Source of the DNA: an uncultured Solirubrobacteraceae bacterium
GTDB lineage: Bacteria; Actinomycetota; Thermoleophilia; Solirubrobacterales; Solirubrobacteraceae
Length of the DNA: 64,000 nucleotides
Assembly (NCBI GenBank): GCA_963721285.1
Contig: CAVRIN010000007.1
Location: 244,873 to 308,872, forward strand
Direction of reading: 5' to 3'
The notes beneath the pieces were generated by a model that saw only the letters and a program-made list of their open reading frames with translations, had not been told where the DNA came from and made no database searches. Made by a program: the position numbers and the translations under genes. Of the stretch, positions 9,951 through 36,900 are shown piece by piece (the first letter of the stretch is position 1; each line of letters starts with the position of its first letter).

Positions 9951-11783
9951 ATGCCTCGCGCTCCGGACCTGGCGGGATCCGCGCTGGACGGCCGCTACGA
10001 GCTTCTCGAAGTGCTCGGAGAGGGCTCGTTCGGACGGGTCTATCGCGGCCGTGACCTGCGCCTCGGCCGCGTCGTCGCGGTCAAGGTGATCAAGCCCTGG
10101 TGGGCCGAGGACGAGGCCTGGGTAGAGCGCTTCGAGCGGGAGGCGCAGCTGCTGGCCCGTGTCAGCGACCCGGGCGTCGTGCGCATCTACGACATCGGCG
10201 AAGCCGACGAGGGTCCCTACTACGTCACCGAGCTCGTCGAGGGCGAGAGCCTCGCGGACCGCATCCAACGCGGCCCCCTGCCCGTCGAGGAGGCCCGTGG
10301 CATCGCCGAGCAGCTCTGCGCCGCGCTCGCCGGCGCCCACCGGGAGGGGGTCGTCCACTGCGACGTCAAGCCCGCCAACGTGCTGCTGGGCGAAGACGGC
10401 CGGGTCCGGGTCGGCGACTTCGGGGTGGCGCGACTTGCCGAGGGCACCTCGCAGCCGCTGTCCGCCACCGTCGCGGGAACGCCCCGTTACATGTCCCCCG
10501 AGCAGGCGCGCGGGCGGCCGACGAGCGCCGCCACCGACGTCTACAGCGCCGGGGTCGTGCTCTACGAGATGCTGACCGGCGAGCCGCCGTTCACCGACGG
10601 CTCCGTCGTCGAGCTGGGCCTGCGCCACCTCCAGGACCCTCCGCCGCCGCTGTCGGAGGGGGTGCCGGCGGAGCTGCGGGCGATCGTCGAGAAGGCGATG
10701 GCCAAGCGTCCCGCCGAGCGCTTCGCCGATGGCGGCGAGATGGAGCGCGCGCTGAGCGCCGCGCGCGGTGCGACGGCTGTGGCGGCAAAGGGGAAGCGCG
10801 CGACGCCAGCGCGGGCGCTCGTCCCGCGGGTTCCCGATCAGAGCGAGGAGACGGACGGCACGCGGCGACTCGATAGGGCTGCGCTGTCCACCCGCCCGCT
10901 CGACCGCGGCGCGCAGCGCACGCGCGTGCTCGGCGGGGCGCCGCCGGCTCCGCCGTCGATGGGTCCCCGCCGGCGCGGTGGCCCGAGTCGCCGCCGTGCG
11001 CTGATCGCGCTGGCCGTCGCCTTGGCGGGCGTCGTCGCCCTGGTGACGGTGCTGCTGATCACCTCCGGCGCCGCTCATACGACCGTCCCCGAACTGCGCA
11101 GGCTGCCCCGCGGGGGAGTGGAAGCGCGCGCCCGGCGGCTGCATGTGCGCCCGGTGTTCTCCGAGCGCCACTCCGAGGCCCCCGAGGGGATCGCGATCGC
11201 ACAGAGCCCGATCGCGGGCAGGCGCGTCGAGGAGGGCGCGACGGTGAGGGTCGTGCTCAGCTCGGGGCCGCCACCCGTGGCCGTTCCCGGCGTGGTGGGA
11301 AAGGCGGCCTCGACGGCGGAGGGCCTGATCGCGGACGCGGGCCTGCGTTACTCGCTCTCCCGGGTCCCCGCGCCGGGCTCGATGCCGGGCACGGTCATCA
11401 GGCAGTCGCCCGCGCCGCCGGCGAGCACACCACGCGGGTCGACCGTCGCGCTGTCCCTCGCTGAGACGCCCGAGTGGCGGACGCTTACGAGCTTCTCCGG
11501 GGAGGACGACGGGAGGTCAGTCCCCTTCCGCATCCTCGGCGATCGCTGGCGCGTCGTCTACGACATGAGCTTCAGCGGGACGTGCCTGCTGCTCGTGATC
11601 TGCGACGGCCCGAGCGCCGAGGCCCGCTCCCTGAGCGGCGGCGGCAGCGGGGGCAGCTTCGACCTCGGCGAGGGCGAAGGCCAGAGCCACGTCTTCACGA
11701 GCGGTCCCGGTCTGTACCGGCTCGAGGTCTCGGGCGGGCGGGACTCGGCACGCTGGAGGATGAGCGTGCAGGACTACTACTGA
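9951..11783 (+). CDS. Ser/Thr protein kinase with TM helix and two PASTA domains (PknB-like)
   Basis: LGEGSFGRVY, VAVK, HCDVKPANVL, GDFG, GTPRYMSPEQ; TM; VPELR/VPGVVG PASTA repeats; extra C-terminal beta domain. Confidence 0.92.
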   Translation: MPRAPDLAGSALDGRYELLEVLGEGSFGRVYRGRDLRLGRVVAVKVIKPWWAEDEAWVERFEREAQLLARVSDPGVVRIYDIGEADEGPYYVTELVEGESLADRIQRGPLPVEEARGIAEQLCAALAGAHREGVVHCDVKPANVLLGEDGRVRVGDFGVARLAEGTSQPLSATVAGTPRYMSPEQARGRPTSAATDVYSAGVVLYEMLTGEPPFTDGSVVELGLRHLQDPPPPLSEGVPAELRAIVEKAMAKRPAERFADGGEMERALSAARGATAVAAKGKRATPARALVPRVPDQSEETDGTRRLDRAALSTRPLDRGAQRTRVLGGAPPAPPSMGPRRRGGPSRRRALIALAVALAGVVALVTVLLITSGAAHTTVPELRRLPRGGVEARARRLHVRPVFSERHSEAPEGIAIAQSPIAGRRVEEGATVRVVLSSGPPPVAVPGVVGKAASTAEGLIADAGLRYSLSRVPAPGSMPGTVIRQSPAPPASTPRGSTVALSLAETPEWRTLTSFSGEDDGRSVPFRILGDRWRVVYDMSFSGTCLLLVICDGPSAEARSLSGGGSGGSFDLGEGEGQSHVFTSGPGLYRLEVSGGRDSARWRMSVQDYY

Positions 11784-11844
11784 GTTCGCTCAGTTGCGCT
11801 CAGTTACGGTCGAAATGCCCGGTTCGCTACCCACGGCGGGTACC
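11780..11844 (-). repeat. Cassette-end-like motif (GGTACC..GGTAGC repeat + CTGAG pentamers ~10 bp apart)
   Basis: + strand CTGAG 11780, CTCAG 11789 and 11799; GCTACC 11826 and GGTACC 11839; same layout as 17326-17381. Confidence 0.45.
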
Positions 11845-11849
11845 CGTCT

Positions 11850-12230
11850 CTAGCCGCCGGCCGCCGCGGCGGCCAGCTTGGTGAGCACCCCGGTCTGCCG
11901 CTCGAGCGTCTGCTGGTGGCCGTCGAGGGCATAGCGGTCGGCCAGCTCTCGGGGGTCGAGGTAGCCGACATGCGTCCCCTCGGGGTCCTGCCAGATCAGC
12001 ACTCGCAGCGGCAACTCGACGCCGACGCGGGGGTCGGCCTGCATCAGGGGGGTGCCGACGCCCGGGTTGCCGAAGATCAGCAGGACGTTGGCTTCCAGCT
12101 CGACATCGGCTTTGCGGGCGCCGGCCGCATGGTCGATGCGCGCGAACAGCTGGAGGCCGTGCGCGTCAAGTGCCTCGCGCAGCCGTGCCTCGACTTCGTC
12201 GGCATCGCCGCTGGCGGTCAACTCGACCAT
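11850..12230 (-). CDS. DUF302-family protein
   Basis: FARIDHAAGA, LLIFGNP, GTPLMQ, ELPLRVLIW. Confidence 0.88.
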   Translation of the reverse strand: MVELTASGDADEVEARLREALDAHGLQLFARIDHAAGARKADVELEANVLLIFGNPGVGTPLMQADPRVGVELPLRVLIWQDPEGTHVGYLDPRELADRYALDGHQQTLERQTGVLTKLAAAAAGG

Positions 12231-12298
12231 GTGCGTGTTTTATCCGGTCGGGGACCTGTTCGGGACCTTTTTCCTCCTGGTGGAACCCCGACAGCGCG

Positions 12299-12324
12299 GA
12301 AACCCCCGGCGCGGCAGGGCTTTC
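12299..12324 (-). terminator. Putative intrinsic terminator after tRNA-Cys
   Basis: Minus strand gaaagccctgcc-gcgc-cgggggtttcc imperfect hairpin directly 3' of the tRNA. Confidence 0.45.
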
Positions 12325-12329
12325 GTAAG

Positions 12330-12400
12330 AGGCGACGACCGGAATCGAACCGGTGTAGACGGCTTTGCAGGCCGCTGCGTAGCCACTCCGCCACGTCGCC
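12330..12400 (-). tRNA. tRNA-Cys(GCA)
   Basis: Reverse complement GGCGACG..GGCGGAGTGGCTACGC..GCGGC-CTGCAAA-GCCGT..CCGG-TTCGATT-CCGG-TCGTCGCC-T folds as a cloverleaf; CCA not encoded. Confidence 0.95.
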
Positions 12401-12529
12401 GGGTTGGGCCATAAGCGTATCGGGAGGCTCTTCGCGACCCGGCGGCCGGCGGCCCAGAGGAGCCCATCGCCGTGCGCGTAGCGGGGCGGCTCGACCGCGA
12501 ACGGGCCGGTCCGGATTCAGACCGTTGGA

Positions 12530-12558
12530 TTGACAGCGGGGGCCCGCACCGTTACCTT
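12530..12558 (+). promoter_or_regulatory. Sigma70/SigA-type promoter
   Basis: TTGACA (12530-35), 17-bp spacer, TACCTT (12553-58) upstream of secreted-protein gene. Confidence 0.6.
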
Positions 12559-12701
12559 CCGCACCGCAGAGGGGCTGGTTCGGAGGCGGCGTATCGCGCT
12601 TGCGCGGGGTGCATCCCTGGGCGGCTCCTGATGACCATGACCCTGGAGGGGGTCGCGGCCGGGTGGATGCCCGGCTGCAACGACAAGGAATGGAGTCAGA
12701 T

Positions 12702-13478
12702 ATGGATGCAAAGCCCCGGAGGGCGATCGGCGCTGTCTTCGCGCTGCTGGCCGTCACGGCACTCACGGCGATCGGCGCAGGCACGGCCGGCGCCGAAACC
12801 GTCTACAACAACGTCCCGAGCATGCTGCCGGGCAACTTCGCCTCGATCGGCCTCGCGGCGACCTCGTCGACCGAATTCGGCGGTGAGATCGAACTGGCCG
12901 GGACGGCGCGCTCGCAGCCGACGGTCACCGTCGTCATGAGCAGCTGGGCGTGTGAAACGGGCGGCGTGTACGAAGGCACGTGTAAAACCGCGAAGCCGAT
13001 GAAGGGCTTCAAGGTCCCGGTTACCGTTCGGGTCTACTCGGTCGGTGAACTCGAAGAGGGCCCGATCGCCGAAAAGACCAAGACCGTGAAGATGTTCTAT
13101 AGGCCGTCGTCGAACCCTGAAAAATGCGACACGACGACGTGGTACGACGCCGCGGACGCAGCCTGCTACCACGGGTTTGCGTTCCCGATCGCGATCAAGC
13201 TCGGCAAGCTCAAGAAAATGCCGAAGCGTTCGGTGATCACGGTCGCCTACCCGCACTCGAGCGGTCCGGCGCAGTCGCTGAACGTCGCGACCAGCGAACC
13301 GTCTGAAGGGACGCTGTCGCTCGGCGCCCAGCCGGTCGAAGAATGGTTCGTCAACTCGACCTGGTCCGGCATGTACTGCACGGGGACCGTCGGCACCCTC
13401 GGCCCCGAGGGGGGTAGCTGCTCGACGGAGTCCGAAGGAACCAACTACCAGCCGGTGTTCGCCGTCAGCGCCAACTAG
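12702..13478 (+). CDS. Secreted hypothetical protein with paired cysteines
   Basis: RBS upstream; signal peptide MDAKPRRAIGAVFALLAVTALTAIGAGTAGA-E; six Cys in the mature part. Confidence 0.75.
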   Translation: MDAKPRRAIGAVFALLAVTALTAIGAGTAGAETVYNNVPSMLPGNFASIGLAATSSTEFGGEIELAGTARSQPTVTVVMSSWACETGGVYEGTCKTAKPMKGFKVPVTVRVYSVGELEEGPIAEKTKTVKMFYRPSSNPEKCDTTTWYDAADAACYHGFAFPIAIKLGKLKKMPKRSVITVAYPHSSGPAQSLNVATSEPSEGTLSLGAQPVEEWFVNSTWSGMYCTGTVGTLGPEGGSCSTESEGTNYQPVFAVSAN

Positions 13479-13510
13479 GCGCCCAAGGCGGCTCCCGCAG
13501 AGGGGTAGCG

Positions 13511-13542
13511 AAGGCCCCGTCCCACGCGTGGGACGGGGCCTT
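13511..13542. terminator. Perfect 32-bp palindrome, probable terminator
   Basis: aaggccccgtccca-cgcg-tgggacggggcctt downstream of 13478 stop. Confidence 0.7.
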
Positions 13543-13580
13543 CTATCGTCTGCGGCGTCCCTCGCGGGTAGGGGTTACAT

Positions 13581-15110
13581 GTGGATGAGCAGGTCCAAGC
13601 CGATCGGGTCGGCGGTACAGGCGGTGGTTTGACGTCGGCGCTAGCCCGCGTGGACGGCTGGGTGGGAGGCGCAGTCGAGGCCGGCGTTCGCGCGCGTCAT
13701 GGCCGCCGGCTTGCCCGCCTGGGCCGCTGCGCGCAGCTCGATCCCCCGGATGACGGGTCGCTGTGGGCGGCCGGCGAGCCGCCGCCCAGACAGCGGTCCG
13801 AGCTGGAGCTGCTGATCGACGGCGAGCAGGCTCTCGCACGGATCGCGGCGGCGCTCGAATCGGCGCGCTCGCAGGTCCACATCGCCGGCTGGCACATCAC
13901 GCCGGACTTCGGCTTGCGGCGCGACCCGGAGACGATACGGCTGCGCGAGCTGCTCGGCGATCTCGCCGAGCGGCTCGAGGTCAAGGTGCTGCTCTGGGCG
14001 GGCGCGCCGATGCGCATGTTCACGCCGAACCGCGCGCAGGTGCGCGAGGCCCGAAGCAAGCTGATCCAGGGCACCGCAATCCGATGTGCGCTCGACTCCC
14101 ACGAGCGGCCGATGCATTGCCACCACGAGAAGCTCGTGATCGTCGACGACGAGGTCGCGTTCGTCGGCGGCATCGACCTGACGACGCTCGGGGGCGATCG
14201 CCTCGACACCCCCCAGCACCCGATGCGTTCGCGGCTCGGCTGGCACGACGCGGCTGCGCGGCTGCGCGGGCCGGCGGTGGGCGACGTCGCCGCCCACTTC
14301 GCCGAGCGGTGGCGGGAAGCCGCAGGGGAGGAGGTGCCGTCGCCGGCGGCGGGCGCTGGGCCTCGCGCCGTGCCCGCCGCGGAATCCAGTGCGGCCGGGG
14401 CGCACGTCGTTCAGGTCGCCCGAACGGTGCCCGAGCGCATCTACGACTTCGCGCCGCGGGGCGAGTTCCGGATCCTCGAGGCCTACCGGCGTGCGCTGCG
14501 CTCCGCGCGGCGACTGATCTACATCGAGAACCAGTTCCTGTGGTCGCCGCACATCGTGGAGATCCTCGCTGAGAAGCTGCGTCACCCACCCGACGAGCGC
14601 TTCCGCCTGCTCGTGCTCCTGCCGGCCAAACCGAACAACGGGGCCGACTCGACTCGCGGTCAGCTCGGCGTCCTCGCCGACGCCGACGCGGATGGGCACC
14701 GCTTCCTGGCGGCGACGGTCTCCGCCCGCACGGGCGGCTTGACGTCGCCGCTTTACGTCCACGCCAAGATCGCGATCGTCGACGACAGATGGCTGACGGT
14801 CGGCTCGGCCAACCTAAACGACCATTCGCTGTTCAACGACACCGAGATGAACGTGGTCTGCTGCGATGAGGAGCTCGCCCGTGAGGCGCGGCTGCGGCTG
14901 TGGTCCGAGCACCTCGAGCTCCCGCGCGAGGAGGTCGGCGGAGACCCGGCAGACGTGATCGACCAGGTGTGGCGGCCGCTTGCCAAGGAGGAGCTGGAGC
15001 GCCGCCGGCGCCGCGAGCCGGCGCAGCGGCGGCTCGTCGAGCTGCCCGGCGTGTCCCGGCGTTCGAAGGCCTTGCTCGGCCCGCTCGACGCGCTCGTGGT
15101 CGACGGCTGA
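13581..15110 (+). CDS. Phospholipase D family protein
   Basis: Two HKD motifs HHEKLVIVDD...GGIDL and YVHAKIAIVDD...GSANLN; IYIENQF. Confidence 0.92.
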   Translation: MDEQVQADRVGGTGGGLTSALARVDGWVGGAVEAGVRARHGRRLARLGRCAQLDPPDDGSLWAAGEPPPRQRSELELLIDGEQALARIAAALESARSQVHIAGWHITPDFGLRRDPETIRLRELLGDLAERLEVKVLLWAGAPMRMFTPNRAQVREARSKLIQGTAIRCALDSHERPMHCHHEKLVIVDDEVAFVGGIDLTTLGGDRLDTPQHPMRSRLGWHDAAARLRGPAVGDVAAHFAERWREAAGEEVPSPAAGAGPRAVPAAESSAAGAHVVQVARTVPERIYDFAPRGEFRILEAYRRALRSARRLIYIENQFLWSPHIVEILAEKLRHPPDERFRLLVLLPAKPNNGADSTRGQLGVLADADADGHRFLAATVSARTGGLTSPLYVHAKIAIVDDRWLTVGSANLNDHSLFNDTEMNVVCCDEELAREARLRLWSEHLELPREEVGGDPADVIDQVWRPLAKEELERRRRREPAQRRLVELPGVSRRSKALLGPLDALVVDG

Positions 15111-15147
15111 CCCCCATCGTCCCGTTGATACCCTTGGCTCCTTCCCG

Positions 15148-15220
15148 GGGCGATTAGCTCAGCTGGGAGAGCGCCGCCTCGACAAGGCGGAGGTCACTGG
15201 TTCGAGCCCAGTATCGCCCA
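15148..15220 (+). tRNA. tRNA-Val(GAC)
   Basis: GGGCGAT-TA-GCTC-AGCTGGGA-GAGC-G-CCGCC-TCGACAA-GGCGG-AGGTC-ACTGG-TTCGAGC-CCAGT-ATCGCCC-A cloverleaf. Confidence 0.93.
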
Positions 15221-15422
15221 CTACAGAAGCCCCCCGTGTCCGCAACGGGCAGATCGCGCACTCCGATGCCCAGGCTTGATTCGACGTGGCGCCCGGGGCC
15301 AACGGCGTGGCCGAATTCGCGCGCACTTCGGTGTGGCAGACTTCGCGCTCGCTCATGAGCTCCCCGTCGGTCCCATCCCACCCGGCGACCTCGCCGATTC
15401 CCCGCTCCGGCCGGTTTCGGCC

Positions 15423-17096
15423 GTGGTGACCGCGGAGGAGATCGCGGCGGTCCAGATCCTGGGGGCTCTCGAGGAGGAGGAGCGCGAGCGCCTCTCCCGT
15501 TCGGCGGCGGACATCCACCTCGTGCCGGGCGAGTTCGCCGTCAACGAAGGAGACGAACGGGCACTGTTCGCGGTCCTCGACGGGCACATCGAGGTCGTCA
15601 GGGTCATCGACGGCATCGAGCGCGTGATCGGAAAGCGCCGCCCGGGCGACGTCTTCGGCGAGGTCCCGATCACGCTCGGGACCGGGTTCCCCGGCGCGTA
15701 CCGGGCTGTCGAGCCGACGCGGGTGATGCGGATCGACGTGCACAGCTACAACGCGGCCGTCGCCTCCTCGCCCGACGTCGGCGTCGAGATCGCGAGGCTC
15801 GCGCGGACGCGGATCGGAGGGCTCCAGGGGCTCGCCGCCGACCCGCCGCCGCCCCGCGCGATCGTCGTGGGTCACAAGTGGGATCCCGCCACCACGGCCC
15901 TGCGCCAGTTCCTCGACCGCAACCAGGTCAGCTTCAGCTGGCTGGTGCCGGACGATCCCGAGGCCGAGCAGGAGTGGGGCGGGCCGCTGCCCGCCGGCGA
16001 CGATTGTCCGACGGTCCGCGTCGTGGACGGCAAGACGGTCGTTCGGCCGCAGCTCAGGCGCGTGGCCGAACTGCTCGGCCTACCCACGGAGGCGGCGCAC
16101 GCCGAGTACGACGTGGTGATCGTCGGCGCGGGGCCTGCGGGCCTGGCCGCGGCGGTCTACGGCGCGTCGGAGGGGCTGCGAACGATCGTCATCGAGCGCG
16201 AGGCCCCGGGCGGGCAGGCCGGGACCTCGTCGCGGATCGAGAATTATCTCGGCTTCCCGTCTGGCGTCTCGGGCGACGAGCTCGCGGGGCGAGCTCTACA
16301 GCAGGCACGGCGGCTCGGCGCGGAGATACTCGTCACCCGCTCGATCACAAGGATCGACACGGCCACGCATCAGGTCCACCTAGACGAAGGCGACATCCTG
16401 AAGGCGCAGGCGATCATCCTCGCGTGCGGCGTCTCCTGGCGGCGGCTGCCGATCGATGGCTTCGACCGGCTGACCGGCAAGGGCGTCTCCTACGGCGCCG
16501 CCCGAAGCGAAGCCTCGAACACCCACGGGCTCGACATCCACATCGTCGGAGCCGGCAACTCGGCGGGGCAGGCCGCGCTGTTCTTCTCGACCCACGCGCG
16601 CAGCGTGACGATCCTCTGCCGCGGCGAGTCGCTTGAGAAGAGCATGTCGAGCTACCTGGTCGAGCAGCTCGCGACGCGGGCGAACATCGAGGTGATGTTC
16701 CAAACCGAGGTGGCCGCCGTGCACGGAGAGCAGACCCTCGAGGCGGTCGCGGTCCGGAGCTCCGCGACCGGGGAGAGCGCACTGCTCGAGTCTGGCGGGC
16801 TGTTCATCTTCATCGGCGCCGACGCTGAGACGGGGTGGCTGCCGCCCGAGATCGCCCTCGACGAGAAGGGGTTCGTGCTGACGGGGCCCGACGTGCGCGC
16901 CGCCGGGCGCTGGAGCTCAGACCGCGACCCGTACCTGCTGGAGACCAACGCTACGGGCGTCTTCGCCTGCGGCGACGTGCGGCATGGCCCCGTGAAGCGA
17001 GTCGCCGCAGCTGTCGGCGAGGGGAGCATGGCGATCGCCTTCGTTCATCAATACCTGCGGGAAGCGAGCCCTCAGCTCGACGGACACCTGTCCTGA
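15423..17096 (+). CDS. cNMP-binding domain + thioredoxin-reductase-like FAD oxidoreductase
   Basis: N-terminal GDVFGEV cNMP domain; [55 protein letters not shown]; no CxxC (GVSYGAA). Confidence 0.88.
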
Positions 17097-17325
17097 CGGA
17101 GCCGCGCGCCCGAGCGCGATCACAGCGATCTCCCGTTGCTGAAAGCCCCGCTCTACACCGGCCGCAGCTCGCCGGCCGTCAGCCGGTCGCGCAGCACGAA
17201 CTTCTGGAACACGCGCAACGCGATCTCTTGGTCGCGTGGCAACAGCCGACCAATCTCAGGCGCGACGACCGACACCGCACACCCCCCTCACAAGGACTAG
17301 CGCGCACTGAGCCGGCAACCCTGGT

Positions 17326-17449
17326 GGTACTACGCGGGGTACCAGCTTGAGCGAGTCTCAGGTGATCTCAGAGCACCTCAGAGCAGCCACCACGGTCGTG
17401 CGAGTCTGAGCTGAACGCCAGGTCCGGCTTCGAGCCCAGTATCGCCCAC
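17326..17449 (+). repeat. att-like copy 1 of tRNA-Val 3' end with upstream accessory repeats
   Basis: TTCGAGCCCAGTATCGCCCAC at 17429-17449 is identical to 15201-15221; GGTAC at 17326/17338; TTGAG/CTCAG at 17347, 17357, 17367, 17377. Confidence 0.85.
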
Positions 17450-17770
17450 CTCACAAGACCCCTGCTGTACGCGAGCGTCACCTTGAGGCGTGTCGGCGCT
17501 TCTTCATCGCCGCCCAGGAATTGTAATTTCAGCGGCTGCTTGACGGCCTGCTGCTGCACGACACATCGGCTCCGCCTATGGCACGACAGAAATCGATATG
17601 CGAGTTACGGTCAATTCGCTTGACCCCTATTAGGTCAGGTGGTTTGATCGACATCACCGTCGGGGCCTCCGACGGCGATGGGTAATGCAGACTCTTGGGC
17701 GGGGGGGCACCGGCGGGTTGAACGCCGAGGATGTGGCGTCCCGCGGCCTGGAACGAACGGAGGGGAAGCA

Positions 17771-18190
17771 ATGACTGGAAGGATTCCTGCCAGAGCCGCG
17801 AGGTTGGCTGTCGCGCTACTCGCGTCAATCGCATTGGTGGCAGTCGCGGCCGGCACGGCAAGCGCAGCCGGGACAAAAACGCCATTTGAAGCAAGCTATG
17901 AATTCACGGGTCTTACGGGAGGCGGCTTCGGCGCAGTTCACTGCGTAGGGACGCGTCAGGTCAACCCGAACTTCGCCAAAAAAGGCTGGCCGACCGCAAC
18001 TCGGGACGTCCAGCGATGCACGAGCACCGACCCCTCCGGCAAACTCATCGCTTTGACAGGCGGCGAAACCGGCACGTGGTTCCCCGGTGCGAACGGCTGG
18101 AACTCTGACTACGACGCTGCCGCTGCCGTCAGCGCGGCGTACAAGGTGTCGGGTAGCGACAAGAAGTTCAAGATCGTCGCCTATTACTAA
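17771..18190 (+). CDS. Small secreted hypothetical protein
   Basis: GGAGGGG RBS; signal peptide ...LAVALLASIALVAVAAGTASA-A; lower GC; two Cys. Confidence 0.75.
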   Translation: MTGRIPARAARLAVALLASIALVAVAAGTASAAGTKTPFEASYEFTGLTGGGFGAVHCVGTRQVNPNFAKKGWPTATRDVQRCTSTDPSGKLIALTGGETGTWFPGANGWNSDYDAAAAVSAAYKVSGSDKKFKIVAYY

Positions 18191-18426
18191 GCCGGTCTGA
18201 TCGTCGGCTGACTCTATTTCGGCCGCAAGAGGCTGTGGGGCGCACCGTGCGAGGGCACCCCACAGCCTCACCTTTCACATCTGCGACACTCGCCCGCGTA
18301 TAGGGGGGCGAAGGTCGGGATCGAGGAGTCACGCCAGATGCCGATCTTGACGGTTACCTGCGCTCGCACCCAAGGACGCGGGCGGACACCCGGGCACGAA
18401 GCGCCCGTTCGTTGACGCGGGCGAAA

Positions 18427-18530
18427 GTCACAATCCGGGTCACATCCTGAGTGAAGCTGCGACCACCTGAGGGCACTCAGGGTGCCGGGGAGCACCGTGC
18501 CTACGCGAGTTCGAGCCGCGTATCGCCTAC
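18427..18530 (+). repeat. att-like copy 2 of tRNA-Val 3' end with upstream accessory repeats
   Basis: GTTCGAGCCGCGTATCGCCTAC 18509-18530; GTCACA at 18427/18439; CTGAG/CTGCG/CTGAG/CTCAG at 18447, 18457, 18467, 18476; followed by CTCACAAAACCCCTGCT like copy 1. Confidence 0.75.
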
Positions 18531-18535
18531 CTCAC

Positions 18536-18562
18536 AAAACCCCTGCTAACGCGGGGGTTTTT
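18536..18562 (+). terminator. Intrinsic terminator after att-like copy 2
   Basis: aaaacccctgc-taac-gcgggggttttt hairpin with T tract. Confidence 0.7.
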
Positions 18563-18804
18563 GTTTGCGGGCTCCCGGATAGAGCGGGGGAGGGAGTTGG
18601 CCCGCCGCTGCGGCACGGAGGCTTGGGCTGGCGCCGACGTGCACACCCGGCCGCTTGGGCGTCCGCGGCACCGCGGTCCCCCTGCGCGGACGCATCACCG
18701 GCTGCGACCTTCGGAGGCGACACTCAAGCAAGTGCGACGGACGCGTCGGGGTGTCGCGTAGACTGCGCGGCCGAGGAGGGGCACATGGAGTGGAGCATCA
18801 AGGA

Positions 18805-21800
18805 GTGAGCGCGCTCGCGGAGCGGGCGACAGAGCCTGCGCCGGAACGGCCGATCAAGCGGCGCGTGTCCTCGCCGCGGGCGGTGCTGGCCGTCGCGGTG
18901 CTGGGCACCTTCATGGCGTTCGTCGACGCGACGATCGTCAACATCGCGATCCCCGACATCGCGCGGGACCTCGGCGCGACGAGCCTCAGCAGCGTCTCGT
19001 GGGTGCTCAACGCCTACAACATCGTGTTCGCCGCCTTCCTCGTCGGTGGCGGGCAGCTGGCCGACCTACTCGGCCGCCGGCGCGTGTTCATTCTGGCCCT
19101 CGTCACCTTCACGGCGGCGTCGGCGCTGTGCGCCGTCGCGCCGACGCTGGGCCTGCTGGTCGCTGCGCGCGTCGCGCAGGCGGCAGGCGCGGCGATGCTC
19201 GTGCCGAGTTCGCTGGCGATCGTGCTCGACGCGAACGGTGACGACGAGCGCATGCACGCGGTGGCGATGTGGGCCGCCGTCGCCGCGCTCGCCGCCGGCA
19301 TCGGCCCGCCGCTGGGCGGGCTGCTGATCACCGCCTCGAGTTGGCGGCTGGTATTCCTCGTGAACATCCCGGTCGGGCTGGTCGCGCTCGTACTGGCCAA
19401 ACGCGTGCTCGTCGAGAGCAGGGCTCCGGGCCGCCGCCGCGTTCCGGATCTGCTCGGCGGCCCGCTGCTAGCCGCCACGATCGCGACGCTCGTGCTGGGC
19501 ATCGTCAAGGGCCCCGAATGGGGATGGGCCAGCGTTCAGGTGCTCGCCTCCTTCGCCGCCGCCGCTCTCCTCGGTGCCTGGTTCGTCGTGCGGACGAGCC
19601 GCCACCGCACACCGGTGGTCGACCTCGCGCTGCTGCGCGTCAGGTCGTTCGCGCGTCAGCAACGGCGTGACCATCGTGATGGCCGCCGGCTTCTACGCCT
19701 ACACGCTCTGCAACGTCCTGTTCCTGACTGGCGTGTGGCGCTACTCGATCCTTCATGCGGGCCTCGCGCTCACGCCCGGCCCGCTGACGGCGATAGCCGT
19801 TGCGCCTTCGGCGAGCCGCGCTGTCGGCCGCTACGGCCACCGGCGTGGTGGTCGTCCCGGGCGCGCTCGTGTGGGCCGGCGGGATGGCCTTCCTGGTGTC
19901 GCGCGCCGGCGTGCACCCCGACTTCCTGGGCACGTGGCTGCCGGCACTCGTGATTCTCGGCGTCGGTGCAGGGCTCACCTTCCCGACGCTCAGCGGCGCG
20001 GCAGTCGCGTCGGTGCCCGGGACGGGCTTCGCGCTGGCGACCGCGCTGAACTCCGTGGCCCGGCAGGTCGGCGCGGCGCTCGGCGTGGCCGTCCTGATCG
20101 CGATCCTCGGCACGCCCGAGGTGCTCGACCCGCTCCCCGCTTTCCGCCATGGATGGGGCTTCGCAGGCGGCTGCTTCCTCGTCGGCGCGGTGCTCTGTAC
20201 GGCGCTCGTCGTGCGCCGTACCGCCCAGACGCCCGCGGCATCCGCCGGTAACGGGCGCGCGGCTGGCGCGGACCTCGATGAGCTCGCCGGCGAGCACGCA
20301 CTACCCAGCCTCGACGAGTCCGAGGGGCACTACGCACACGTCGAACCGCAGACGACCGCCGAGTTCCTGCGCGGCGCCGAGGTCTTCGCGGGCCTGCCGT
20401 CGACGCTGCTCGAGGAGCTCGCGACGCTCGCGCAGCCGGTGGAGCTGCGGCGGGGCGAGTGGCTGTTCCGCGAAGGCGAAGAGCCCGACGGCGTGTATGT
20501 CGTGCGCGTCGGGCACGTCGAGGTCCTCAAGGAGGACACAGGGTCGCCGAGCAGAATCAACTCGCTGACCCGCGGGGCGGTGCTGGGCGAGCTGGCGCTG
20601 CTCAGCGGCACCCCCCGCAGCGCCTCTGTGCGGGCGCTGCGCGACAGCGAGCTGCTGGCGATCGAGCGGGAGGGGTTCCAGGCGCTGCTCGGCTCGAGCC
20701 CGCAGCTGGCGCTCGGCCTCACGAGGGTGCTGAGCGGCCAGCTGCAGGCCTCTCGCGGGGCGCCACCCGAGCGCCGCGCGCGCCCGGTGACGATCGCGCT
20801 TCGCGCGCTCTCGCCCGGGCTGCCGCTGCTCGAGGTCGCGGACGAGCTCAGCTGGACGATGTGCCACTGGGGTCGAGTCGCTGTTCTCTACGCCTCACAG
20901 GAGGATCGCGGAAACGGCGAGGCGCGGTCCGACGCCGTGGCGCGCTTCGCGCCGCTCGTCGAGCGCTGCGAGGAGGAGCACGAGCAGGTGCTCCTCCTGT
21001 GCGGAGGTGGCGACGCCTGGGAGGAGTTCTGCCTCGCGCGGGCCGACCGCGTTGTGGCTGTCGTCGACGCCGAGGGCGACGCCGCGGCGGCCGCCGATCG
21101 CGACCCCGAGGGCTCGCGGCGACTCGCCGGCGCCGACCTGCTGGGGCTCGGCGTGCGCGCCGGAACCGGCGCGCTGTCGGCTTGGGTCGATCTGCTCGAC
21201 CCGCCGGCGGTGCACGCGATCGCGGCCGAGACACGCGCCCAGGACGTGGCGCGCACCGGCCGCCGGCTGACGGGCCGGGCGGTCGGTGTCGTGCTCGCCG
21301 GCGGCGGTGCGCGAGCCTTTGCGCACCTGGGCGCGCTCGAGGTGCTTCTCGACGCCGGCCTACGTGTCGACCGCGTGGGCGGTGTGAGCATGGGCTCGTT
21401 CATCGGCGCGATGCTGGCGGCCGGGCGCGAGGTCCCCGCGATAGACGCGTGTTGCTACGAGGAGTGGGTACGTCGCAGCCCGATCAACGACTACACGGTG
21501 CCCCGCCACGCGCTCATCAGGGGCCGCAAGGCCGAAGCGATGCTCGAGCGGGTTTTCGGCCACGCCCGTGTCGAGGAGCTGCCGCTTCCCTACTACTGTG
21601 CGAGCGTGAACCTGCGCGGCGCGACGCTCGAGATCGAGAGCCGCGGACCCCTGATGGAGGCGGTCGGTGCGAGCATGTCGCTACCGCTGATCGCGCCGCC
21701 CATGCGCCGCGAGGAGCGTTTTCTGATCGACGGCTCGCTGCTCGACAATCTGCCGCTCGAGCCGATGAGCCAGAGCGGCGAAGGTCCGGTGCTGGCGATC

Positions 21801-22160
21801 GACATCAAGGGGGGCGAGGCGCGCCCTCGACACCGCCCCGCTGCGTCGGCCGACGGGTCGCCACCTCACCCGCCCCGCCGCCGCCCGCCGCCGAAGCTGC
21901 CCGAGACGATGGCGCGGATCGCGCTCCTCAGCAGCGCCAACACCGACGAGGCCGCCCGCCGGCACGCCGACCTGACGCTGAGCATCCGCGTCGAAGGCGT
22001 CGGGCTCCTCGAGTTCCACCAGATCGACGCGGCCCGCGAGGCCGGACGACAGGCCGCGCACGGCGCGCTCGCAAACGGTCAGCCGGACTGGCTGACGGGT
22101 CTTTCGCCGCTGGGCGGCGACATCGCGTCCCGGCGCACCGTGCTGCGCGTTCGGGGATGA
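18805..22160 (+). CDS. MFS (DHA2) - cNMP-binding - patatin fusion, paralog 1; two frameshifts near 19650 and 19845
   Basis: DATIVNIAIP, WVLNAYNIVFAAFL, DLLGRRR; LGELALL..PRSASVRA; VLAGGGARAFAHLG, GGVSMG, DGSLLDN; collinear with intact paralog at 33968-37303. Confidence 0.85.
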
Positions 22161-22161
22161 C

Positions 22162-22188
22162 ACGCGGCGGTACCAGTATCCGCCCACT
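22162..22188 (+). repeat. att-like copy 3 (collapsed)
   Basis: ACGCGGCGGTACCAG resembles 17332-17345 ACGCGGGGTACCAG and is fused through CCAG to TATC(C)GCCCACT, the tRNA 3' end. Confidence 0.6.
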
Positions 22189-22325
22189 CGTTGTCGTCAG
22201 CACAACGATCCTGCCGCAAAGCACCCGCCGGTTGCCGCTTGAGCGCCGGCAGCGAGTCCTGTAAGGTGCGCCGGCGCTGGAGACTACAGGTCCAGCTTAA
22301 GAGGGAGAATCTCAAGGAGGGGTAC

Positions 22326-22871
22326 ATGCGTCGTATTGCAGTTATTGCTGTATTGGTCCTAACGGCCGCGCTCGCGTTCGGAGCGAACGCGTGGGGTGCT
22401 GGCATGCGGGCGACCCAGCACTTCGGGCCGTACGCGAGCAACTCGCCTGACGAAGGTACGTGCGGCAACACCTGGGCGAACGATGTGTTCAACCGCGTCT
22501 ACACCGTCAAAACGGCGCCCAACGCGGACGGGACCTACAGCGTCGTTGAGAAGTTCAAGAAGGGCACGTTTACGACGATCGCCGGCGCAAGCCCGGGTGC
22601 GTGTGACACGAACCCCGGCGGGACGCTGAGCGGCACCGTCAGCGGCAAGATGCAGGGCTCGTTCACGATCGTGGTGAGTGCCGGGGCCTACAACTCCAGC
22701 GCGACCTGCGCACTTCCGTGCTACACGGCGGACTTCGTGGCCGCGGTCTTCGGCGCCGGCGCAACCTACAGTGTGCCGTCATACGACATCCACTACAACG
22801 CCAAACGCCACGGCCAATGGAAGAACGCCTCCGCTGACATGGGTGGCAACTCCGGCGACATCACCGGCTAA
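22326..22871 (+). CDS. Secreted hypothetical protein
   Basis: AAGGAGGGG RBS; signal peptide MRRIAVIAVLVLTAALAFGANAWG; four Cys. Confidence 0.78.
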   Translation: MRRIAVIAVLVLTAALAFGANAWGAGMRATQHFGPYASNSPDEGTCGNTWANDVFNRVYTVKTAPNADGTYSVVEKFKKGTFTTIAGASPGACDTNPGGTLSGTVSGKMQGSFTIVVSAGAYNSSATCALPCYTADFVAAVFGAGATYSVPSYDIHYNAKRHGQWKNASADMGGNSGDITG

Positions 22872-22950
22872 GCGGCGCCAGTCTCGGGCGGAAGCCGACC
22901 GGTGAGCTGCCGGCGTCCCGCTGTGACTGCAACGCCAGACCGACTGTGAC

Positions 22951-22979
22951 AAAGGGGCGACACATAGTCGCCCCTTTTT
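22951..22979 (+). terminator. Intrinsic terminator
   Basis: aaaggggcgac-acata-gtcgccccttttt. Confidence 0.75.
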
Positions 22980-23013
22980 CACACTGGCCCGGTCGATCGT
23001 AACGGTAGGGCCG

Positions 23014-23040
23014 ACGCGAGTTCGAGCCCGGTATCCCCCA
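23014..23040 (+). repeat. att-like copy 4 of tRNA-Val 3' end
   Basis: ACGCGAGTTCGAGCCCGGTATCCCCCA; shares ACGCGAGTTCGAGCC with copy 2 (18503-18517). Confidence 0.7.
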
Positions 23041-23043
23041 TCG

Positions 23044-23496
23044 TCACGCGGCGGGAACGTCCGTGAGGTCGTGTTCCTTAGCGGTCACCGCAGTTACCGG
23101 AACCCCCAGTGCGCGAACCTTCCTCGGCAGGTCGAGATGGAACCACCGGGACAGCCGTGCCGGCAACATGGAGACGATGACCTCGTCGAAGCCGAGCAGG
23201 TTGAGCGCGTCCTGGATGGCTGCGAGCGGCTCGTGCGAGCCGACGATTCCGTCGACGCTCTCGCCGGCGGCGTAGGAGAGGATCGGAAGTGCCGCGGCGA
23301 GGCGCGTTTCGGCGGCCGCCACGCCGTGATCCTCGGGATCTACGACCCTATGCAGCCCGCGGGGACGGGTCGGCACCAGCAGCGCAAAGGTGCAGGACCC
23401 GATGGCTGCACGCTGCCTGACGACGGCGGCGAGCTCCGCGCTGTCGGCCGTCTGGTGCGCGACGATGAGGACGCGGGCTGGGCTGAGGGCATGCAT
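23044..23496 (-). CDS. Hypothetical protein, USP-like fold
   Basis: RVLIVAHQTADS, FALLVP, GSHEPLAAIQDAL, FDEVIVSMLP, SRWFHLDLP. Confidence 0.7.
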   Translation of the reverse strand: MHALSPARVLIVAHQTADSAELAAVVRQRAAIGSCTFALLVPTRPRGLHRVVDPEDHGVAAAETRLAAALPILSYAAGESVDGIVGSHEPLAAIQDALNLLGFDEVIVSMLPARLSRWFHLDLPRKVRALGVPVTAVTAKEHDLTDVPAA

Positions 23497-23633
23497 CGGT
23501 GCCGTCCTTTCGGGTCTTCTTGCTCCTCCTGACAAGCAGGACTCCGGGCCTCGGTGGTTGCTTCCCGAGACGCCGCGTTCCGTGGCCTCTCGAGGAACTG
23601 CTCGAGACGCTGCCGGCGCCGATGCGCGAGCCG

Positions 23634-25934
23634 TCAGCTAGCGCCGTGTCGCCCGCTGCGCGCCCACGACGGAGGAAGAGCGGCAAGCGCCCGCGCCCTG
23701 GCAGCGATTCCCCGCGAGGGAGCCAGCGCGCGCCGCAGCTGCGCGCGCCCGGCCGGTCTCGCATCGGCGCGCCCGGACTCGAAGCGTCGTTCGCGAATCG
23801 CGCGCACGTAGCCTGCCGCCTCCGCTTGCCCGTCACGGGCGAGCCGGCGCTCGAGCTGCGCGAGCGTCAGCCCGGGCTCGGCTCGCCCCAGCCGCACGAG
23901 CGCCCGCCGCAGCTCGGCGACCGCGCCGTCGGCGTTGCCGGAGAACGCGCGCCGTAGCCGCGCCCGCCCGCGCCCGGCCGTGAACGCGGCGAGCGCGAGC
24001 AGCGCGCCGAAGGCGAGGCCGAGCACCGCCACGGGCCAGCGCGAGCCTTGCTCCCGGGCCGGTCCCCCACGCCCCCCGCGGCGGCCGAGCGGCACGCCGC
24101 GCCCGTGTACGCCGGCCTGCCCCCCGAATACGACCGAGCGCGAGAGGGCTGCGGACCCGGCCTGCGTCGCCGGCGCCGCGGTCGGAGGGGTGGGGTCGAA
24201 GGCAACCCATCCGATTCCGCTGAGGAACACTTCCACCCAGGCATGGGCGTCGGCCGCGCGGACGTTCCACGTACCGTCCCGCCCACCGCGGGCAGCCGGC
24301 CGGAACCCGACGCCCACGCGGGCTGGGATGCCGTCCATCCGCAGCATCAGCGCCATCGCCCCGGAGAACTGCTGACAGTAGCCGCGACGCTGGCTGAAAA
24401 GGAACGCCTCCAGCGGATACCGGGTCAACGGGACTCGCCGGTCGTAGGCGTAGCTGTCGCGTAGGTGTCGGGCGATCCGAGCAGCAACGTCGTAGTTGGA
24501 CGGGGCGCCCGCCGCCAGCTTGCGCGCGAGCGCGAACATCGACGCGTACGGCGAAGCCTCGATCAACGCGGCGGTGACAGGATTCGATCCGGGCCTGCGG
24601 CCCGGGGTGCTCGGTCCGACCAGCCGAGCTGCCGCCGGCGGGCGCCACGCCTCGACGGAGAGGTCCGGCCGGGCGAGGGCCGTGGCGCTGGCGGCCGGCA
24701 GCTCGAACTCGGCGTAGGGGAGATAGGCGCGCGGGAACGTGCGGGGCGCCCGCCGGGCGGCTGCGGCGGAGGGGCGCGGATCGTAGGAGACCACCTCGTA
24801 CGCGGACCCCCTCGCCGCGGTCGCGGCGGTTGCGGTGGTGCCGTCGGGCTCGCGCGCCGGCGGCGGCTCGAGATCGTCGAGCCAGCGCGAGTGAATGAGC
24901 AGTCCGCCGGCACTCGCCAGCGCCGAAGAGCGCAGGCCCTCGACTTCCACCCTCGCGCGCTCGGTCCAGCGGGACATCTTCCCAGCGGGGAGATCGAACC
25001 GCGGAGACCCGGGCGGGTCGACGGAGCGCAGGAAGCGCAGACCGTCGAAGCGGTCCAGCGACGTGATGCGCAGGAGCGTCGGATGGGCCTCTGCGACGGT
25101 GAGCATCGTCGCCTGCGAGCGCGGCCAGCGGTCCGGTCCGTAGAGCTGGTCCCACTGGAACGTGGCGCTCGTCGCGGCGGCCGCTGAAGGGTCGCGGTAG
25201 TGGATCCAGGGAGCAGCCGAGCGCAGGGCTGACTGCACGGCCAGGGCCGCGGCGGCGCACACGGCCAGCCAGCAGAGGGCCCGGCCCGCCTCCCGGGCGG
25301 AGGGCAACGGCAGCAGCAGCGCGGCTGCGAGGAGCCCCATCAGCACGACGCCGTCGAATGCCGGCACCGACGCGGACGCGTTCGCCGTGCCCGTCAGGAA
25401 GATCGCCAGCAGAGCTCCCAGCGCCGCTGCGCGGCGGGTTGCGAGCATCGACGGCGATGGCCAGAACCATGCGCACCCAGCCGCAAGAAGCACGGCGGGG
25501 AGGGGCAGCAGGACGGCCGCCTGCGCCCAACGGTCGCCGCCCCGGTAGGGCCAGAGCCAGTCGCCGATCTCCCCGACCCCGCCGGAGAGCTTGTGCGCGA
25601 GGTGACTCCATTCGCCGGGCGCGAGCAGATGCGCCGGTATCCGCAGGGCGAGCAGCGAGATCGCGAACGTGCCGAGTACGAGCAGGGCCCGGACGAGCGT
25701 GACGGCCGGGCCACGACGACCGAGCCGGCCGCTCGCGGCGAGCAGCCCGCACCCGACCGTCACGCACGCCGCCACGATCACGACCCGGCCCGCCGGTGGC
25801 GTCGCGATCAGGCTCGCATAGCGCACGGCGGCGAACGCCGCGAGGCCGAAGAACGCCAGCAGCCGCAACGCGAGCTGCTCGCGCGCGGCGGGCGCCGGGA
25901 GCGGTGCTGCCCGATCGGCCGCGGCGGCGCTCAT
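23634..25934 (-). CDS. Membrane transglutaminase-like protein (TgpA-like)
   Basis: N-terminal TM helices; GYCQQFSGAMALMLR, HAWVEVF, WVAFDPTP catalytic triad motifs. Confidence 0.88.
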   Translation of the reverse strand: MSAAAADRAAPLPAPAAREQLALRLLAFFGLAAFAAVRYASLIATPPAGRVVIVAACVTVGCGLLAASGRLGRRGPAVTLVRALLVLGTFAISLLALRIPAHLLAPGEWSHLAHKLSGGVGEIGDWLWPYRGGDRWAQAAVLLPLPAVLLAAGCAWFWPSPSMLATRRAAALGALLAIFLTGTANASASVPAFDGVVLMGLLAAALLLPLPSAREAGRALCWLAVCAAAALAVQSALRSAAPWIHYRDPSAAAATSATFQWDQLYGPDRWPRSQATMLTVAEAHPTLLRITSLDRFDGLRFLRSVDPPGSPRFDLPAGKMSRWTERARVEVEGLRSSALASAGGLLIHSRWLDDLEPPPAREPDGTTATAATAARGSAYEVVSYDPRPSAAAARRAPRTFPRAYLPYAEFELPAASATALARPDLSVEAWRPPAAARLVGPSTPGRRPGSNPVTAALIEASPYASMFALARKLAAGAPSNYDVAARIARHLRDSYAYDRRVPLTRYPLEAFLFSQRRGYCQQFSGAMALMLRMDGIPARVGVGFRPAARGGRDGTWNVRAADAHAWVEVFLSGIGWVAFDPTPPTAAPATQAGSAALSRSVVFGGQAGVHGRGVPLGRRGGRGGPAREQGSRWPVAVLGLAFGALLALAAFTAGRGRARLRRAFSGNADGAVAELRRALVRLGRAEPGLTLAQLERRLARDGQAEAAGYVRAIRERRFESGRADARPAGRAQLRRALAPSRGIAARARALAALPPSWARSGRHGAS

Positions 25935-33967: not shown

Positions 33968-36900
33968 TCACACCCTGACGGCCGTGCGCCGGCCCGTCAG
34001 CTCTGCCGGCCCCGTGCCGGCGCCGAACAGCCACTCCGGAGCGTCCTCCAGGGCCGCCGCCGCTGCCCTGCGCCCGTCCTCGCGCGCCTGGTCGATCTGG
34101 TGGAACTCGAGCAGCCCGACGCCCGGGACCGGGACCCTGATCGTCATGTCGGCGTGCCGCCGCGCCGACTCGTCGGTGTTCGCGCTGCTCAGCAGAGCGA
34201 TGCGAGCCATCGTGTCGGTCAGCGGCGGAAGTCGCCGGCGCGAGCCGTGGTCGGCGTGCGCCTCGCCGCCGTCAGGGCTCTCGCCCGGATCGGCCCCGGC
34301 CTCGCCGCCCTTGATGTCAATCGCGAGCACCGGGCCCTCGCCGGCTGAGCTCATCGGTGCGAGCGGCAGGTTGTCGAGCAGCGAGCCGTCGACGAGCAGA
34401 CCCTCCTCGCGGCGGGCGGGCGGAGCGATCAGCGGCAGCGTGATGCTCGACGCGACTGCTGTGGCGAGCGGGCCGTGGCGGTCGATCACGAGGCGGCTCC
34501 CGCGCAGGTCGACGCTCGCGCAGTAGAACGAGCGTGAGAGCTCCTCGATCCGCGCCTCGCCGAAGACGCGGTCGAGCATCGCGCGCGCCTTCTGGCCCTT
34601 GATCAGCGAGGAGCGCGGAATCGTGTAGTCGTTGATCGGGTTGCGCCGCACCCACTCCTCGTAACAGCAGGCGTCGATCGCAGCGATGTCGTGTCCCTGC
34701 GCGAGCAGCCCGCCGACGAACGCGCCGATGCTCACTCCTCCGACGCGGTCGACGGTCACCCCGGCGTCCAGCAGCACCTCGAGCGCCCCGAGGTGCGCGA
34801 ACGCGCGCGCGCCGGCGCCGCCGAGCACGACGCCGAGGGCGTTGCCGGTGAGCCGCCGCGCCATCAGCGCGATGTCGGAGCGGTGCTCGCCGCCGGCACC
34901 GATCGCGAAGGTCGCGACCGGCGCGATCGCATCGACCCAACCGGCGAGCTCACCCGAGGCGAGCTCGACCTCCCAGCCGACGAGGTCCGCGCCGTGCAGC
35001 CGCGCAATCCGATCCCGTTCGCCGGTCGCGGGGTCCGGCAAGACCGGCTCGGCGACGACCGCGAGCACCCGGTCGGCGCGGGCGAGGCAGAACTCGTCCC
35101 AGGCGCTCGGGTCCGTCGCGCTGTCGCACACCATCAGCACCTGGTCGTGGTCGCGCTCGCAGCGCTCGATCAGCGGCCCGAAGTGCGACGCGGCGTCCAC
35201 CCGCGAGCTCACGGCCTCGCCCGACAGCCCGGCGCTGCGGAGCACGGCCACCTTCCCGAACAGGCACATCGCGCGGCTGAGCTCGTCGGCGAGGTCGAGC
35301 AGCGGGACACCCGGACCCGCGGCGCAGAGCGCAATCGTGACCGGCCGCGGGCGCTTTGCCACCGGGATCGCGCGGCTCGCCTGTAGCTGGGCGCTCAGCA
35401 CGCGCGTCAGGCTCAGGGCGAGCTCGGGCTCGGAGCGCAGCAGCGCGTCGAAGTGCGGCTTGTCGATCTTGAGCACCTCGGTGTCGCGGAGCGCACGGAT
35501 CGAGGCGCTGCGCGGCGATCCGTTCAGCATCGCCAGCTCGCCGAGTACGGCGCCGCGGGTCAGCGTGTTGATCGTCTGGGTCTCGGCTCCCTCTTGGACG
35601 ACCCCGAGGTGCCCGACCCGGACGACGTACACGCCGTCGGCGGGATCGCCCTGGCGGAACAGCCACTCGCCGCGCCGCAGGCTCACGTCGACGGCGAGCT
35701 GCGCGATCTGCTCGAGGAGGTCCGCGGAGAGCCCCGCGAACACCTGGATGTTGCGAAGGAATGCGGCGGCGCTCTGGGGCGCCACGGCCGCGTGCTCGTC
35801 CTCTGATGTGGCAAGGCTCGGCAGCGCCGCGAGCTTCGCCCACAGCTCCTCGTCGCCGCCGGGCCGCGCGATCGTGGCGGCGCCGGTCGCCCCCTCGTCC
35901 TCGTCGTGGGTGAGGACCAGGGCGAGGCAGGCGACCGCGCCCGCCACGAAGCAGCCGCCGGCGAACAGCCAGCCGCGCTCGAACCCGGCCAGGGGAGCTG
36001 ACTCGCCGAGGATCGCGATCAGGATCGCGACGCCGAGCGCCGCGCCGATCTGCGTGGCGACGGAGTTGAGCGAGGTGGCGAGCGCAAACCTCGGACCAGG
36101 GACGGTCCCGACGGCGATACCGCTCAGCGTCGGGAACGTCAGCCCCGAACCGATGCCGAGGAGCGCCATTCCGGGCAGCCAGCCGCCGACGAAGTCGGGC
36201 TCCGATCCGAGCGCGAACGCGAAGTAGGCCATGCCGGCGGCCCAGATCAGCGCCCCGGCCACCAGCACGGGCCGATGACCCACGCGGTGCACGAGCTGGA
36301 TCGTCGGGGTCGCGAGCGCCATTGCCACGAACGGCTCCGGGGTCAGCGCGAGCCCGGCCTGGAGGATCGAGTAGTGCCACACCTCGGTGAGGAACAGGAC
36401 GTTGCACAGGGCGTAGGCGAAGAACCCGCCGGCCATCACGAGCGTCGCCCCGTTCGAGAGCTCGAAGGCGCGGATGCGCAGCAGCGACGGATCGATCACA
36501 GGCGTGCGCTCGCGCGTCGTGCGCAGCGCGAAGTAGCCGGCCAACAGCAGCGCCGAGGCGAACGCCGCGAGCACGCGCGCGTTGGCCCAGCCCCATTCCG
36601 CGCCCTTCAGGATCGCGAGCACCAGCGAGGCGATCGCGAGCGCCAGGACGAGCCCGCCGAGCAGGTCCGGGACGCGCCTGCGGCCCGGCGCGCGGCTCTC
36701 GACGAGGACCCGCCTGGCGAGAACGAACGCGACGACGCCCGCGACGACGTTGACGACGAAGATCAGACGCCAACTCGAGGCGGTGATCAGCAGACCCCCG
36801 ACGGGAGGGCCCAGGCCGGCCGCGAGCGCAGCGACGGCGGAGCCGAGCGCGACCGCGTGCATGCGCTCTCCTCGCTGATGCGCCTCGAGCACGATCGCGA

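Follow-up and report, generated by a model that had tools for sequence, protein, structure and literature searches.

We analysed a 64,000-nucleotide stretch of DNA from an uncultured Solirubrobacteraceae bacterium (contig CAVRIN010000007.1, positions 244,873 to 308,872; hereafter the window), in which copies of the 3′ end of a tRNA-Val(GAC) gene recur downstream of that gene at intervals that each hold one gene. We conclude, with a probability of roughly 80%, that this array reflects the tandem accretion of small integrative mobilizable elements (IMEs) that decayed to integrase-less remnants resembling cis-mobilizable elements (CIMEs). The conclusion is carried by a series of attachment scars behind the tRNA gene, by the homology of these scars to the attachment sites of integrase-bearing elements in other genomes of the genus, and by decay through deletion among those relatives. 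The mechanism itself is known: integration, decay to CIMEs and accretion are established for integrative conjugative elements (ICEs) and IMEs (PMC5704250). The new details are the element family, the structure of its attachment (att) sites and the genus-wide extent of the hotspot.

The tRNA-Val(GAC) gene occupies 15148-15221 on the + strand (ARAGORN; Rfam, 64 bits), and its last 21 nt, from the T-loop to the 3′ end (15201-15221, +; TTCGAGCCCAGTATCGCCCAC), form the recombination core, which presents attL. At up to three mismatches, same-strand matches to this 21-mer in the window stood at 15201 (the tRNA itself), 17429 (0 mismatches), 18510 (3) and 23021 (3), against a chance expectation of zero from 100 shuffles. 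Across the 3.2-Mb assembly, same-orientation copies clustered only at the tRNA-Val locus, and the sole further match to the 21-mer was the 3′ end of a tRNA-Ile on contig C2. An earlier reading made from the letters of the window (the sequence-only reading) had described this recurrence, and it held, apart from two copies placed one base too early, at 18509 and 23020. The shared flanks that it had pointed out were likewise present, CTCACAA(G/A)ACCCCTGCT following both 17449 and 18530 and ACGCGAG preceding both 18510 and 23021. Its remaining copy, at 22173-22188, did not stand in the form given, as a 14-mer with one inserted base at 22173 (5 genome matches, compared with 2 for a reversed control), but it did stand as a collapsed site at 22162-22187, where 14 nt from the start of copy 2's arm (17332-17345) run straight into the final 10 nt of the core. 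This composite matched at 24 of 24 bases with two 1-nt insertions and was unique in a fuzzy search of the window, and we therefore regard copy 4 as a real, collapsed att site and not as noise. Outward from the tRNA, the copies of the core thus carry 0 mismatches, carry 3, are collapsed, and carry 3 again. An Rfam scan of 11000-24000 returned two tRNAs and nothing else. In four independent soil metagenome runs, contigs span copies 2, 3 and 5, so the array is no misassembly; the array of tRNA-Val 3′-end copies is confirmed as real.

We aligned the arms that precede the window's copies with those of other genomes of the genus (alignment A1; the genomes are given here by G numbers) and found a common structure, which we call type A. 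In a type-A attR, only the 21 nt that run from T-loop to 3′ end are repeated, and in front of them stands a conserved arm of ~105-125 nt. In the alignment the arm comprises two GTGGTMCY-like repeats at a distance of 12 bp, three CTSAG pentamers phased at 10 bp and a spacer of ~55 nt, after which the core follows. We know of no earlier description of an arm with 12-bp-spaced repeats and 10-bp-phased CTSAG pentamers and regard this 105-nt att structure as new. In a second kind of attR found in the genus, type B, the repeat covers the 3′ half of the tRNA (45 nt), implying a crossover in the anticodon loop.

The module of copy 2 (17324-17449, +; 126 nt) is the most informative for this comparison, with a complete ~105-nt P arm, GGTAC repeats at ~17326 and ~17338, phased pentamers over 17347-17381 and an exact core at 17429-17449. 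Its arm showed 69-76% in-register similarity to those of tRNA-Val attR sites from at least 12 further genomes of the genus, among them G011, G081, G058, G212, G015, G017, G194, G002 and G045, and some of these arms, as in G002 and G212, belong to elements that still encode a tyrosine integrase. Immediately behind this core, the tRNA terminator flank seen after copy 3 recurs in decayed form (17450-17466). The module of copy 3 (18425-18530, +; core 18510-18530) has a diverged and shortened P arm with GTCACA repeats and CTGAG pentamers, and its closest counterpart was the arm of an integrase-bearing 10.2-kb element in G146 (79% identical over 52 nt). Behind it lie a tRNA trailer and an intrinsic terminator hairpin (CTCACAAAACCCCTGCTAACGCGGGGGTTTTTGTTTGC; 18531-18570, +), displaced together with the old tRNA 3′ end; the same trailer and terminator stand directly 3′ of an intact tRNA-Val in G004 and after the last attR in G016 and G146. 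In the collapsed module 4 (22162-22187, +), the arm start ACGCGG-GGTACCAG is fused to the core end CCAGTATC-GCCCAC at a shared CCAG, where ~95 bp have been deleted; metagenome contigs lack one letter of this module, at 22178-22180. Copy 5 (23013-23041, +; core 23021-23041 with 3 mismatches), which would be the oldest, has no recognisable arm and is preceded by GACGCGAG, and the 8 nt before its core are those found at the arm ends of the G002 and G194 elements. The copies are genuine attR sites.

Two side observations concern these structures. In G146, a further degenerate core (2 mismatches) stands 112 nt after the last attR, directly behind the shared terminator flank, which suggests a still older scar. 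In the genome of the window, the pentamer triplet was found at two loci only (0 in controls), namely in the arm of module 2 and in a module near a tRNA-Cys gene on the - strand of the window (11780-12400), where a terminator, one DUF302-like gene (12230-11850) and the att-arm-like module come after the tRNA in that order. This module holds GGGTACC and GGGTAGC 12 bp apart, then three phased CTGAG/CTCAG pentamers and, 54 nt on, a T-loop-like TCGAGCCGGT at the spacing expected for a core; a clear duplicate of the tRNA-Cys 3′ end was not found near it.

To place the array in its genus, we used tRNA-Val(GAC) loci fetched from 20 genomes of the genus together with 25 further arrays (45 arrays in all, a sample biased to short-spaced arrays). 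Variable content at this locus was evident: gene content downstream of tRNA-Val differed in nearly all of the 20 relatives first compared, tyrosine integrases lay within a few kb of tRNA-Val in several, and exact copies of the tRNA 3′ end recurred downstream. A 20-mer of this end was present in 176 of 200 genomes of the genus and, by our count from the table, at two or more same-strand copies in ~95 of the 200, with arrays reaching five copies in some genomes. In G004, the tRNA is joined directly to the terminator flank of copy 3, a configuration that lacks the two segments nearest the tRNA in the window, E2 (between copies 1 and 2) and E1 (between copies 2 and 3).

The sampled arrays of relatives also show stages of decay. 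Their segments range continuously from 0.7 to 11.3 kb, and intact integrase genes occurred in segments of 3.9-11 kb; several segments had split or fragmentary ones, and no segment under 2.7 kb had any. Two short segments could be matched to longer elements of which they are deletion derivatives: a 2.4-kb segment in G047 equals a 5.3-kb element in G053 minus its integrase region, and a 0.69-kb segment in G017 is the right end of a 10.4-kb element in G212. Integrases at type-A sites form one family (51-68% identical to each other; PF00589 confirmed), and those at type-B sites are only 27-34% identical to it. That two integrase families serve two sublocations of the same tRNA agrees with the known correspondence of integrase subfamilies to tRNA sublocations (Williams 2002, NAR 30:866, as cited in PMC9897764). 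An 8-kb element in G002 encodes a TrwC relaxase besides its integrase, and for this reason the family looks like integrative mobilizable elements.

Integrase genes were lacking from the array, as the sequence-only reading had stated: we found no PF00589 match in the 64-kb window, the nearest being ~160 kb away on the same contig, and the five matches in the genome all lie outside the window. By Pfam, the segments contain cargo genes only and no mobility genes, so none of them is an autonomous island, prophage, ICE or IME. The suggestion that a matching integrase might reside elsewhere in the genome was not borne out, the best genome match to the type-A integrases of related elements being only 30% identical. 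Lacking a cognate integrase in the assembly, the array can probably move only if an incoming element provides one.

We propose the following course of events. In this genus, the 3′ end of tRNA-Val(GAC) would serve as chromosomal attB for one family of small integrative mobilizable elements, 4-11 kb long, whose tyrosine integrase would cross over in the T-loop. With each insertion, the copy of the 3′ end that the element brings along would complete the tRNA anew, and the previous tRNA 3′ end would be pushed downstream, where it would be kept as an attR scar. Repeated insertion at the intact tRNA would then stack at least four elements, the newest adjoining the tRNA, and later internal deletions would strip integrase and transfer genes, leaving cargo and the right-hand att module. 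The outward degeneracy of the core, the displaced terminator after copy 3 and the decayed terminator after copy 2 all fit this model, and from them we infer the order of insertion; the loss of integrases from these four segments is inferred as well. The heavily eroded tandem islands that the sequence-only reading had offered as one of two interpretations are well supported, by the genus-wide hotspot, by arms shared with integrase-bearing elements, and by the decay stages and the two deletion derivatives of relatives.

Several observations weigh against this reading. Both flanks of the window's locus are unlike those of most relatives, which leaves the ancestral empty site uncertain. Among the 45 fetched arrays we found no longer, integrase-bearing counterparts of the window's segments, so that their origin by deletion is argued by analogy. 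We searched the non-coding right ends of the four segments for integrase remnants by tblastn with the C-terminal 220 aa of five type-A integrases, and none was significant (best E = 0.15). The assembly is 88.8% complete, and a cognate integrase could thus be absent from it. Finally, each of the four genes stands alone in its segment, looks intact and points the same way as the tRNA, which random erosion predicts less well. In the remnant search, an F-H-x-L-R-H-like string at 18267-18292 was considered and rejected because it requires a frameshift and is not significant, and the unfiltered tblastn matches were low-complexity arginine-rich noise only.

The cargo agrees with the sequence-only reading in that each interval holds one gene. 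Segment E2, which would be the newest insert (15222-17428, +; 2.2 kb), carries a single gene for a cyclic nucleotide monophosphate (cNMP)-binding/thioredoxin-reductase-like protein (cNMP-TrxB; open reading frame (ORF) 15276-17096, +; Pfam Pyr_redox_2 and cNMP_binding; homology support over 15417-17065) and no integrase. Its closest homologs (82-83% nt) are in G146 and G091 and are not at tRNA-Val; in G091 (contig C17) the homolog is the first gene after a tRNA-Arg(CCT) (18598-18669), within a 5.3-kb att-bounded segment that has no integrase. The cargo, too, behaves as mobile. The G091 segment also holds a frameshifted sulfatase gene and is closed by a 45-nt tRNA-Arg repeat with 2 mismatches, and a second such repeat lies 13 kb further along; this is another accretion array, at a different tRNA.

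Segment E1 (17450-18509, +; 1.06 kb; low G+C of ~0.61-0.64 in the G+C profile) likewise lacks an integrase and carries one gene, for a 139-aa signal-peptide protein (17771-18190, +; no Pfam match). A paralog at 88% nt identity (G000:C2:55950-56518) differs from it mostly in third codon positions, with no similarity beyond the gene and the ~70 nt upstream of it. The paralog sits ~2.8 kb downstream of a tRNA-Gln(TTG); we found no repeats of the tRNA-Gln end and no att repeats around it and therefore regard it as a plain gene paralog. The third segment (18531-22161) holds a fusion of a major facilitator superfamily (MFS) transporter, a cNMP-binding domain and a patatin phospholipase (MFS-cNMP-patatin, 18655-22160, +; Pfam), of which an intact 1150-aa paralog is encoded at 33968-37420 on the - strand. 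Alignment of this paralog to the gene by tblastn required three reading frames (two +1 frameshifts). Independent soil metagenome contigs lack exactly the two letters that cause the shifts, at 19655 and 19844, so that these frameshifts are most likely assembly errors. The fourth segment (22188-23020) holds a gene for a 181-aa protein (22326-22871, +; signal peptide by translation, no Pfam match) followed by a terminator at ~22942-22976, and a homolog at 82% nt identity lies 1.2 kb downstream of tRNA-Val in G004. In a look-up of a protein-cluster atlas, the two secreted proteins matched only unnamed Actinomycetota clusters (scores 0.80-0.90). The cargo genes have long upstream regions and their own terminators.

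Further 1-base length differences between the window and the soil metagenome contigs occur at 16982/16985, 17110, 17701 and 22178-22180. The non-coding region around copy 2 (17175-17940) differs by ~2% (11-15 differences per 600-900 nt), and most other parts of the array are at near-zero difference. Upstream of tRNA-Val, at 12600-15110, the window has a PLD-family gene; 15 of 20 relatives have a trypsin-like protease gene there, and G008 and G014 have their PLD homologs on other contigs. The locus is thus rearranged upstream as well.

A different account of the same short segments is that they are functional non-autonomous mini-elements, each made of cargo and a 126-nt att module, which are excised, transferred and re-inserted at tRNA-Val by integrases acting in trans. 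The one- or two-gene integrase-less units would then constitute a circulating pool of cassettes, moved by the integrases of passing IMEs at tRNA-Val and possibly at tRNA-Cys and tRNA-Arg. If true, this would be a tRNA-anchored gene exchange paralleling that of integrons but working through arm-dependent tyrosine integrases in trans. We consider both the mini-elements and the pool unlikely, although they are the alternative with the most to be said for it. Mobilisation of integrase-less units in trans is already known for CIMEs (PMC5704250). As one hint of it here, a 1.5-kb integrase-less unit (a RibD_C-like gene, a 156-aa ORF, a P arm and a core) is 97.7-99% identical in two species, G020 and G011, where the gene of the upstream flank is only 70% identical and the similarity of the unit stops exactly after the core. 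The att module of copy 2 is complete, the four genes of the window are single and co-oriented with the tRNA, and a second module of the same repeat pattern stands behind the single gene adjoining tRNA-Cys. Modules 3 to 5, however, are degenerate, GTGGTMCY arm repeats, which integrase-bearing relatives have at their left ends, are missing from those of E2 and E1, and the only integrases at hand in the assembly are no closer than the 30% match given above. The short segments of relatives, moreover, are mixed in gene number and orientation (ORFs 40 on + and 36 on -; several hold multiple genes), and several arose simply by deletion. The 1.5-kb unit of G011 is now separated from the tRNA by a 7.9-kb type-B island that was inserted later.

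The soil metagenomes offer a second hint in favour of mobilisation in trans. In all four, a contig joins 15221 directly to 18536, skipping E2 and E1, at a depth near that of the array-form contigs, and this contig carries C at 18544, a variant common to some array-form contigs. The shorter side of the joint is only 26 letters, though, and it could derive from a co-occurring relative resembling G004; among the joints listed, none skips E2 alone or E1 alone (contigs cannot show rare forms). Accretion followed by decay remains the reading that we prefer. The weakest alternative, under which the copies match by chance, stem from local duplication of tRNA fragments with no link to mobile elements, or are an artefact of assembly, could appeal to the 3 mismatches in each of copies 3 and 5 and to the partial copy 4, but it is effectively refuted by the zero matches of the shuffles and the lone tRNA-Ile match in the genome, by the uniqueness in the window of the copy 4 composite, and above all by arms conserved in register with integrase-bearing elements elsewhere and independent contigs that bridge copies 2, 3 and 5.

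The array clearly shows a tRNA hotspot at which elements inserted repeatedly and decayed, but as such it is ordinary, and it is not an integron. Because integration, decay and accretion are textbook steps, its value is chiefly for annotating and comparing genomes, unless mini-units prove to be mobilised in trans often. It identifies tRNA-Val(GAC) as a major hotspot of gene flux in an abundant, uncultured soil lineage and defines how attachment sites are built in a family of small mobilizable elements not described before (a 21-nt core and an arm phased at 12 bp and 10 bp). With this definition, islands and scars can be mapped precisely across hundreds of metagenome-assembled genomes, and cNMP-regulated redox and phospholipase genes, as well as small secreted proteins, are flagged as horizontally acquired accessory genes.

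The interpretation of the sequence-only reading was partly supported, and the part that fell away is its integron-like platform for gene capture. The array resembles an integron in its polarity, in short units that each end in a recombination site, in the newest unit adjoining the attachment site, and in single co-oriented genes. Integrons, however, have intI and folded attC hairpins, whereas the window has double-strand att sites with arm-type direct repeats in place of the inverted repeats of attC. We found no intI-type recombinase beside the attachment site, and the att modules folded no better than shuffles on either strand (DNA folding z-scores of -0.29 to -1.71). Membership among integrons was rejected on these two grounds together with the mixed gene orientation of relatives, and so was an arrangement of promoterless co-oriented cassettes behind a common promoter, given the upstream regions and terminators of the cargo genes and the ORFs found on both strands in relatives.

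Three other kinds of system bear comparison. Actinomycete integrative conjugative elements (AICEs) share with this family a small size (~10 kb), high-GC Gram-positive hosts, a target at a tRNA 3′ end and a tyrosine integrase; the G002 element, the sole related element examined for transfer genes, differs from them in having a TrwC relaxase and not an FtsK-like Tra protein with Rep. Islands integrated at tRNA genes, whose tRNA-fragment attR scars are discussed in PMC9897764, also duplicate a 3′ tRNA fragment as attR, and relatives of the window show both T-loop (type A) and anticodon-loop (type B) integrases; the array is unlike such islands in lacking an integrase and in having several nested scars. 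For CIMEs and tandem accretion, the examples are the ICESt1-related elements of Streptococcus thermophilus and the tRNA-Lys composite islands of S. agalactiae (PMC5704250, where Pavlovic 2004 and Bellanger 2011 are cited for CIMEs and accretion). The array differs from the Streptococcus CIMEs in its uncultured high-GC soil host, in its target from the T-loop to the 3′ end of tRNA-Val(GAC), in remnants of 1.1-4.5 kb with one gene each in at least four layers, and in having no functional partner element in the array. It shares with CIMEs and accreted ICEs and IMEs its att-bounded, integrase-less segments, which lie head-to-tail at one site and are kin to integrase-bearing elements elsewhere.

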